This document shows, in pieces, positions 1 through 5,921 of a stretch of DNA of 5,921 nt (its first letter is position 1; every line of letters begins with the position of its first letter). A program made the translations under genes and the position numbers. The notes beneath the pieces are model-generated. The model saw only the letters and a list, made by a program, of their open reading frames with translations. It made no database searches and was not told where the DNA came from. The stretch lies in NCBI RefSeq assembly GCF_003334815.1, contig NZ_QOWO01000069.1; one strand, given 5' to 3'. The stretch is from Escherichia coli (GTDB lineage Bacteria > Pseudomonadota > Gammaproteobacteria > Enterobacterales > Enterobacteriaceae).

Positions 1-315
1 GACCCGCCGCAACGACGAAGAGCGCGTGCGCGAAACGGCGTTGCCCCTCACATCCCGGCGGCCTTTTGCCGGGATGCAGGGAGCGCAGGCCACGGCGCGA
101 CAGAGGCGGCGCGACCGGAACGGTCGCTGCAAGCCAGGGGTTTCGCGTCAGGGATGGAAGCCCGTCAGGGCGGAGACAGCTTCGCTGGCTCCGTTCACGA
201 CAGCCCGCCCCGTCAGGGGGACGCCCGGAAAAGGCATAAGCAGGAGAACAACAAAACAGACAGTAATCAGGACAGCAGTAATCAGAGTCAGAACAGGAGG
301 AAAAAGAGAATAATC
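1..315. repeat. Copy A of a ~290-bp direct repeat; candidate Frpo/ssi-type single-stranded-DNA promoter element (begins at the window edge, so may be truncated)
   Basis: Positions 51..270 are identical base for base to 5682..5901 (220 bp); 1..50 matches 5631..5681 with a few substitutions and one indel. Internal dyad symmetry: 51-59/68-76 (9-bp stem), 111-117/121-127 (7-bp stem), 29-36/140-147, and imperfect long-range pairing 37-51/212-225. Purine-rich 3' tail. Functional call is inference from position in an IncF leading region. Confidence 0.6.
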
Positions 316-464
316 AAAGGGAAGGTGATGTGATTTCTGACAGGTCATAAACAGAGAAGGCGGGGGAAAAGAACGGGCGCCGCAGGCGCACGTTCATCCC
401 CGTTCCCGGAGGGAAACGGCCTTCCTGGCAGTCTGGTTGTTCATGCCCGCACAATGCCAGCAAG

Positions 465-570: not shown

Positions 571-732
571 CTACTTACCGCCGGATTCGTAAGCCATTGT
601 TGCCGTAACTTCCCTGTATCCGTCCTTCAGCCGGACTTCGCACAGGCGATTCCGGGTCAGGAGTGTGAATATCAACAACGTGCAGCACACGATTAATACG
701 CACCAGATAAGGGCGTTTCCCGGTAGTTTCAT
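571..732 (-). CDS. hok: Hok-family type I toxin (small membrane-depolarising peptide), 53 aa
   Basis: Hand translation of minus strand from ATG at 732 to TAG at 571-573 gives [53 protein letters not shown], which closely resembles R1 Hok (hydrophobic N-terminus, conserved LCE and MAYESG motifs). RBS AAGGAGGAG about 6 nt upstream. Absent from the ORF track because it is under 60 aa. The symbol flmA/srnB is equally possible depending on the plasmid. Confidence 0.85.
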
Positions 733-790
733 GGTTTACTCCTCCTTGCAATTTGCACGGTAAGAGGCCATACTGACGTGGATGAGACAT
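575..790 (-). CDS. mok: Mok-like overlapping reading frame (translation of hok is coupled to it)
   Basis: 71-aa ORF in a different frame that starts upstream of hok (ATG at 790) and overlaps almost all of hok, ending 4 nt before the hok stop; this is the characteristic mok/hok arrangement. Confidence 0.6.
746..774 (+). promoter_or_regulatory. Candidate sok promoter: -35 TTGCAA (746-751), 17-nt spacer, -10 CATACT (769-774)
   Basis: Plus-strand sigma70-like hexamers opposite the mok translation initiation region, at the position of the sok promoter in R1 hok/sok. The -10 is weak (4 of 6 match). Confidence 0.4.
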
Positions 791-845
791 ACAGTGGGCC
801 TCGTGGGTTAATGAAAATTAACTACGGGGCTTTCTGCTTTCTGCC
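780..845 (+). ncRNA. sok: Sok-like antisense RNA (antitoxin of the hok/sok system); ends approximate
   Basis: Inferred from the hok/mok architecture: an antisense RNA of about 64 nt starting just after the candidate promoter and complementary to the hok mRNA leader / mok start. Coordinates estimated, not measured. Confidence 0.4.
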
Positions 846-900
846 ACACGACAGGATAACAAACCACCTTCACGTCATGAGGCAGAAAGCCTCAAGCGCC

Positions 901-940
901 GGGCACATCATAGCCCATATACCTGCACACTGACCACACT
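901..940 (-). promoter_or_regulatory. Candidate hok/mok promoter; -10 TATGAT at 907-912 on the minus strand, transcript 5' end near 900
   Basis: Minus-strand sequence from 900 downward (GGCGCTTGAGGCTTTCTGCCTCATGACGTGAAGGTGG...) matches the 5' end of the R1 hok mRNA as I recall it. TATGAT lies 6 nt upstream of that 5' end. The -35 is not clear. Confidence 0.45.
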
Positions 941-5302: not shown

Positions 5303-5485
5303 GATGTATCTCCTTCTGTTGATGTTTTCAGCCCCCATCATCTTTTGAGTTTCGGGAGCCGCGGTTTTGACGTTTTGCGGGGACCTGCCTTTTGTTCCCT
5401 ACGGTATTCACCATCACCTTTTTGAGAACCTTCGCCGCAAGGGGCATCACTGCCACGGCCTGACGCACCTGTCCTGGGCAGAACG

Positions 5486-5521
5486 CAAAATTTTTTACCG
5501 GGTTCTGGGTAAAAAATTTTG
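5486..5521. repeat. Perfect 14-bp AT-rich inverted repeat (CAAAATTTTTTACC / GGTAAAAAATTTTG) with 8-nt spacer; candidate operator or structured regulatory site upstream of ssb
   Basis: Arms 5486-5499 and 5508-5521 are exact reverse complements; an extra C-G pair at 5484/5523. No flanking T-run on either strand, so unlikely to be an intrinsic terminator. Confidence 0.6.
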
Positions 5522-5630
5522 TGGGCTGTTCATTTACCCTGGACAGTCAGTGCGGCAGGTTGTGGCTGTATCAGCCCCCGGCGACAGGGGCTTAAACAGG
5601 TGAATGGCACCGGACACAACAACGGGCAGG

Positions 5631-5921
5631 GACCCGCCGCAACGACGTGAAGCGCGGTTTGCGAAACGGCGTTGCGCCTTACATCCCGGCGGCCTTTTGC
5701 CGGGATGCAGGGAGCGCAGGCCACGGCGCGACAGAGGCGGCGCGACCGGAACGGTCGCTGCAAGCCAGGGGTTTCGCGTCAGGGATGGAAGCCCGTCAGG
5801 GCGGAGACAGCTTCGCTGGCTCCGTTCACGACAGCCCGCCCCGTCAGGGGGACGCCCGGAAAAGGCATAAGCAGGAGAACAACAAAACAGACAGTAATCA
5901 GAGCAGCAGAAAAAAGAAGAA
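5631..5921. repeat. Copy B of the ~290-bp direct repeat; candidate Frpo/ssi-type single-stranded-DNA promoter upstream of the ssb operon (runs to the window end, so may be truncated)
   Basis: 5682..5901 is identical to 51..270; flanks diverge. Begins about 330 nt upstream (minus-strand sense) of the ssb start codon. Same internal hairpins as copy A. Confidence 0.6.

Follow-up and report, generated by a model that had tools for sequence, protein, structure and literature searches.

The window, by which we mean the whole 5,921-nt stretch of Escherichia coli DNA analysed here, is the leading region of an IncF plasmid. In its ORF list, Hok, PsiA, PsiB, a ParB-like protein of 655 aa, a DUF905-like protein and SSB are all encoded by the minus strand. 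The hok toxin ORF occupies 571-732 (minus strand, from the ORF list), the sok antisense RNA was identified at 730-901 (minus strand; Rfam RF01794, 98 bits), and a terminator-like hairpin with a T-run lies at 362-396 (minus strand), at the downstream end of the hok locus. Thousands of IncF plasmids match the whole window at 90-97% identity. The gene order in annotated relatives and in plasmid F (NC_002483) is traM, oriT, a transglycosylase gene, a DUF932 gene, a 288-nt gene (ORF95), a repeat, hok, psiA, psiB, the parB-like gene, ssb and again the repeat. Given this order, the strand that runs 5' to 3' from oriT into the region corresponds to the plus strand of the window, which is thus the transferred strand and the template for all leading genes. 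This bears out the first-pass annotation, which had taken the plus strand to be the transferred one, and it agrees with what has been published on Frpo1 and Frpo2 of F (PMC9849209; PMC11541004).

The repeat is a Frpo unit of about 0.6 kb, as found in IncF leading regions, and the purine-rich tract studied here is its distal edge (3' on the transferred strand). Each unit is ordered as a Frpo hairpin, a 228-nt GC-rich module and a tail; in relatives the repeat spans ~590 bp and contains a long inverted repeat. In copy B, the Frpo-type ssDNA promoter hairpin upstream of ssb lies at 5377-5637 (plus strand) and matches its own reverse complement. In the DNA fold of 5360-5650, with an energy of -80.5 kcal/mol (z = -8.8), the transferred strand forms an imperfect hairpin that is both long and stable; the Frpo -35 and -10 hexamers and the start site were not placed with confidence from this fold alone. 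The GC-rich module of copy B follows the hairpin directly (5638-5865, plus strand), and that of copy A (8-233, plus strand) is 96.5% identical to it by BLAST and folds into several hairpins. The hairpin and GC-rich module always travel together with the tail directly after them, so that ~230 nt separate the base of the hairpin from the tail, which is on the side left untranscribed by Frpo. The hairpin and GC-rich module of the window share 86-97% identity with both Frpo units of F, in which they are followed by type A and type C tails (tail types are described below).

Several other features of the unit and its surroundings were observed along the way. The 228-nt GC-rich module is conserved as strongly as the Frpo hairpin; in the literature consulted, the hairpin alone is described. 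The module also has a second form, in which the first ~137 nt are common and the sequence then switches to TCACGCATCGGACCGTAGCG...GGGAGCCGAAGGTG. This form occurs in L003 (1360-1500), in L011 (23203-23330) and in both units of the IncI1 plasmid R64 (NC_005014; L136, reverse strand), and its presence in some IncF and both IncI1 units indicates that the repeat is put together, as a mosaic, from parts that can be exchanged. Some Frpo hairpins in relatives are followed immediately by a 68-aa hypothetical gene, WP_000547965.1 (L003 913-1119; L004 999-1205), at the place where copy B of the window has ssb. A pyrimidine-rich tract lies 5' of each Frpo hairpin on the transferred strand (5305-5340 in the window; 5964-6024 and 14771-14852 in L001, for example) and is antisense to the first gene's ribosome-binding region.

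The first-pass annotation had described positions 231-330 as almost entirely A/G. At 77% purine this was too strong a wording, but the tract is indeed the most purine-rich stretch of the window, which as a whole is 47% purine: the best 100-nt intervals for purine start at 226-231. When 60-nt intervals were scanned (mean 0.474, sd 0.089), a purine fraction of at least 0.75 was reached only at 215-377 and 5846-5921, which are the two tails. The tail of copy A (type A, on the hok side; 234-330, plus strand, 77% purine) is the same tail that is found in 68 related units. That of copy B (type B; 5866-5921, plus strand, 80% purine) is cut short where the window stops, and it matches exactly the proximal portion of type B tails; in relatives, these tails go on with (CAGTAG)n. 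Tail composition is approximately A 0.48, G 0.27, C 0.13 and T 0.12, i.e., A-rich and T-poor. We also observed that the end of the copy A tail (327-332) reads GGAAGGTGATGTGA, with a Shine-Dalgarno-like GGAAGG on the plus strand followed by a minimal ATG-TGA start-stop pair; this arrangement is probably due to chance.

As reported earlier, the 10-mer CAGTAATCAG occurs twice in copy A (261-270 and 276-285) and once in copy B (5892). Tandem Repeats Finder describes the duplication as a 15-nt-period tandem repeat at 256-285 (plus strand, 1.9 copies), and in most relatives the first copy of the 10-mer reads CAATAATCAG. Copies A and B of the unit are identical to ~270/5901 and divergent beyond. The suggestion that this variation marks the repeat boundary therefore holds insofar as the homology between A and B ends inside the tract, but the duplication itself is one state of a wider copy-number polymorphism and is not peculiar to the window. 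The copy B tail had also appeared to be the shorter of the two. However, the window holds only its first 56 nt (ending at 5921), and when measured to the downstream anchor in relatives, type B tails (75-126 nt) are not shorter than type A tails (85-104 nt).

To follow the tail beyond the window, units were gathered from annotated plasmids (L001-L004, L011-L013, F and R64) and by scanning metagenomes for the 20-mer that lies at the junction between the GC-rich module and the tail; this gave 150 units, each with at least 250 nt of flank. When the junction 20-mer was sought in one genome per species, only 6 loci were found, mostly on short, contaminant-like contigs. One of three related tail types is carried by 141 of the 150 units: type A by 68, type B by 48 and type C by 25, with mean purine fractions of 0.74, 0.74 and 0.85, respectively. 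Among the remaining 9 units, insertion sequences break the tail in 4, a diverged form of the copy-B type is present in 1, and the other 4 lie in unrelated contexts. Across all IncF loci examined (L001, L011, L012, pSLT and F), no purine tract on the transferred strand is stronger than the Frpo tails. A type C tail of F reaches 0.98 purine over 60 nt, and the diverged Salmonella plasmid pSLT has (GAACAG)7 at the tail position. With regard to R64, no 60-nt interval reaches 0.75 purine; at the equivalent place there are 40-nt tracts of 0.72-0.75 purine, which are at or above the 99th percentile of the locus and are without tandem repeats. Our results indicate that a purine tract is conserved next to Frpo units in IncF plasmids (the 141 units plus pSLT). 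For other Frpo-like elements, the idea of a conserved tract extends only weakly to IncI1, where R64 has the short, weak version just described.

Mobile elements were observed at or near some of the tails. On independent metagenome contigs (L010, at ~2624; L049; L059; L062; L097), IS66-family insertion sequences interrupt Frpo tails at three or four distinct positions. Their ends in the tails read GTAAGCG... or GTAACCGG..., and they encode an Orf2-like protein (MISLPSGTRIWLVAGVTDMRKSF). Frpo tails may be a preferred insertion target of IS66-family elements. In addition, L011, a Klebsiella plasmid, has a group II intron (ltrA reverse transcriptase/maturase) at 23934-25601, immediately past its third Frpo unit and at the place where a tail is expected.

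The tails are hypervariable tandem arrays. They contain (CAGTAG)n with n of 0-9, (AAC)n with n of 2-5 and GAA/GAG triplets, (GAR)n, with n of 3-11, and the 18-mer CAGTAATCAGAGTCAGAG is present once in 38 units and twice in 29. In L011, Tandem Repeats Finder reported 2.3 copies of the 18-mer and 7.5 copies of CAGTAG, both with a 100% match. Distinct lengths number 15 in type B and 10 in type C, and length is constant modulo 3 in 14 of the 15 type B variants and in all 10 type C variants. It is likely that tail length changes by slipped-strand mispairing of these 3-, 6- and 18-nt units, in which case the 15-nt spacing of the 10-mer in the window would be one such slippage state.

The origin of the purine bias can be approached through what the tails have in common. 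A core, GAAGAACAGTA, is common to types B and C and to pSLT, and the first ~36 nt are the same in types A and B. Because of this shared sequence, the bias may have been inherited and then amplified by repeat expansion rather than selected, and since the three types and pSLT share the core, the triplet pattern can likewise come from a single ancestral tract. Selection for keeping purines was not detected when purine-to-purine and purine-to-pyrimidine changes were compared between the tails (47:25) and a control consisting of the hairpin and GC-rich module (62:52; p = 0.17), the control alignment having been cleaned of diverged sequences. The number of changes per site was alike in the two (0.40 in the tails vs. 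0.48 in the hairpin and GC-rich module).

The constant length modulo 3 raises the possibility of a small protein encoded in the tail. This would be a hydrophilic, low-complexity product read on the plus strand from a conserved ATG at 154, or else short hydrophobic peptides on the minus strand, with copy number varying the length of the product. Such a protein would account for the modulo-3 pattern of types B and C, although multiples of 3 also follow automatically, and without selection, from units of 3 and 6 nt. In 100 of the 101 distinct contexts, the plus-strand frame set by the ATG at 154 runs through the tail without a stop; the ATG itself is present in 90, and pSLT keeps both an ATG-GAA start and the open frame. 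However, T-poor sequence contains few stop codons, and we estimate from tail composition a ~20% chance that any one frame would be open over 33 codons. Moreover, the plus-strand ORF stops at unrelated places, giving lengths from 48 to 129 codons. The pyrimidines of the tail are phased by 3, as they might be in a coding sequence, but the phase of the triplets relative to the ATG in pSLT is unlike that of the other types, and the polymorphic sites of the shared part are distributed 6/6/9 over codon positions, with no third-position excess.

Neither start has a usable Shine-Dalgarno sequence, since AGGG abuts the plus-strand ATG and a pyrimidine run precedes the minus-strand ATG. No promoter was predicted for a plus-strand transcript, and neither strand has a predicted sigma-70-like promoter within or next to the tails. 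The minus-strand ORFs differ in frame and start among types A, B, C and pSLT, and their peptides are hydrophobic because any pyrimidine-rich sequence gives such peptides. ORFs are sometimes annotated here by PGAP or by submitters, but the public records show three different ORFs on either strand, or none, and six candidate peptides had no match in NCBIfam. Taken together, we consider a small protein encoded by the tail to be very unlikely and, with modest confidence, regard the tail as probably non-coding.

A second property of the tail emerges from predicted folds of the transferred strand. Using DNA parameters on five units of four tail types, we obtained mean unpaired probabilities of 0.61-0.78 for the tail, 0.29-0.38 for the hairpin and GC-rich module, and 0.33-0.48 for the sequence beyond the tail. 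The tail is thus the sole poorly paired segment in these folds, which makes plausible the structural effect that the first-pass annotation had proposed for the tract. We note that the prediction changes when the fold takes in a further 120-170 nt 5' of the hairpin: some of the tail then base-pairs with pyrimidine-rich sequence antisense to the next gene's ribosome-binding region, so "unpaired" depends on the context. A specific interaction between these two segments was considered and rejected, as its energy is no better than that of composition-matched mononucleotide shuffles (z of -2.9 to +1.7, mostly near 0). Given that shuffled sequences pair equally well, the effect is compositional and not specific.

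On the basis of the observed position, composition, conservation and copy-number polymorphism of the tail, together with its predicted lack of pairing, we favour, with some reserve, its interpretation as a non-coding linker, prone to slippage, that separates the upstream terminator from the folded promoter module. Being almost without pyrimidines to pair with, the tail would be the only part of the entering single strand left unfolded. As a passive and flexible linker, presumably coated by SSB, it could keep the promoter hairpin and the GC-rich module folding independently of neighbouring sequence. SSB has been reported to stimulate Frpo transcription strongly (PMC11541004), and given this report the tail is probably covered by SSB. 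Both this occupancy and a benefit to the promoter are what we infer from the predicted folds and the published behaviour of Frpo. Two observations go against a linker role: IncI1 units work with only a short tract, and the length variants come in multiples of 3, which is not required of a purely structural linker.

A stronger claim would be that selection maintains the tail as a working part of the ssDNA promoter unit. It might serve, for instance, as an SSB landing pad or insulator (41-126 nt corresponds to about one to two SSB tetramers) that is tuned by slippage and sets the strength or duration of Frpo firing after transfer, or it might encode a length-variable small protein that is made only once the plasmid is double-stranded. 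We consider this, in either form, to be fairly unlikely.

A role at the RNA level was also weighed against the linker interpretation. Transcripts that read through from the upstream operon would gain a U/C-rich, G-poor, unstructured stretch. This stretch could load Rho, with a weak rU:dA hybrid freeing the RNA from its single-stranded template, or it could mask the purine-rich ribosome-binding site of the first gene after Frpo, such that only transcripts started at Frpo would be expressed. The location and composition of the tail agree with this: it lies downstream of the terminator-like hairpins or stop codons of the upstream operon, it is poorly structured, and its composition in the transcript sense is approximately U 0.48, C 0.27, G 0.13 and A 0.12, with a C/G ratio of ~2. 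CUCCU-like motifs are also present, and folds show pairing of the tail with the Shine-Dalgarno/start region of ssb or of the first gene, which could mask the site. However, pairing to the ribosome-binding region is subject to the shuffle result given above, the tract is U-rich and not C-rich, and types A and B already have a hairpin and T-run upstream of the tail. In the window, the hairpin at 362-396 lies just upstream of the copy A tail in the transcript sense, and a comparable hairpin precedes the tail of the copy B type in L001. An RNA-level role therefore appears distinctly unlikely.

The tail could, alternatively, act as double-stranded DNA, by forming H-DNA (triplex) or by providing an AT-rich, curved island that nucleates H-NS and helps to silence the leading genes in established plasmids. 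This reading would draw on the ~60% A+T of the tail between flanks of ~35-40% A+T, on its runs of A5-A7 and on the type C tail of F, whose 98% purine over 60 nt would suit a triplex. Types A and B, the window included, would be poor substrates for triplex formation, as they are 72-77% purine and are broken by C or T every few bases, and tail length varies three-fold without apparent consequence. Triplex or H-NS roles are conceivable only for the purest tails, such as type C of F, and for the tail in general we regard a duplex role as exceedingly improbable.

The tail is, then, a real but minor feature, which adds detail to a known element without being a new kind of its own. The genes expressed first when a resistance plasmid enters a new cell are driven by Frpo-type promoters, and knowledge of the full extent of the repeat unit (hairpin, GC-rich module and variable tail) aids the design of deletions and reporters. 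The extent of the unit also explains where homology between Frpo copies stops, and the tail provides a length-variable marker for telling close IncF plasmids apart. If the tail were to modulate promoter folding or SSB occupancy, it would be a tunable part added to a single-stranded promoter; at present this is only a possibility.

The strand bias of the tail had led to the proposal that it might affect priming, and polypurine-tract primers (the retroviral PPT, or persistent hybrids of the ColE1 RNA II type) are the obvious comparison. Like them, the tail is a strand-biased purine tract near a site of RNA-primed DNA synthesis, as Frpo transcripts prime synthesis of the complementary strand. In contrast to a PPT, the tail lies upstream of the Frpo start and is untranscribed by Frpo. 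We rejected the tail as a polypurine-tract RNA primer because its purines are on the plus strand, which is the transferred template, so that RNA made on the tail would be polypyrimidine, the opposite of the polarity needed. Polypyrimidine RNA on purine DNA is the least stable type of hybrid. Priming by DnaG fares no better: DnaG starts primers at CTG, and this trinucleotide is absent from the tail sequence. Hence, the proposed priming role was not upheld.

Comparison with rut sites gives a mixed picture. Similar to a rut site, the tail is untranslated, poorly structured, contains more C than G in the transcript sense and is placed downstream of the end of an operon; unlike a rut site, it is U-rich instead of C-rich and follows intrinsic-terminator-like hairpins. 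Bacterial SSR/VNTR loci are a closer match for the variability of the tail, in that both consist of head-to-tail units (of 3, 6 and 18 nt here) whose copy number differs among near-identical sequences. The tail differs from VNTR loci in lying outside any gene or promoter spacer and in having units that are all multiples of 3. A phase-variation (contingency) switch was rejected on several grounds, namely the 3-, 6- and 18-nt units, the constant length modulo 3, the lack of a supported ORF and the lack of promoter hexamers flanking the tract.

We found no description of the purine tail in the Frpo papers searched, in which the described functional element is the hairpin with its -35 and -10 boxes; the tail lies ~230 nt beyond it. 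Frpo repeats have been reported upstream of ssb, next to hok and on the transferred strand, in two to three copies per plasmid, which agrees with the placement of our tail units (PMC9849209; PMC3817090). The tail thus belongs with the Frpo/ssi class-1 repeats of IncF and IncI1 plasmids (Frpo1 and Frpo2 of F; R1-R3 of pO26-CRL125), of which it is physically a part, following the hairpin and the GC-rich module in every copy.
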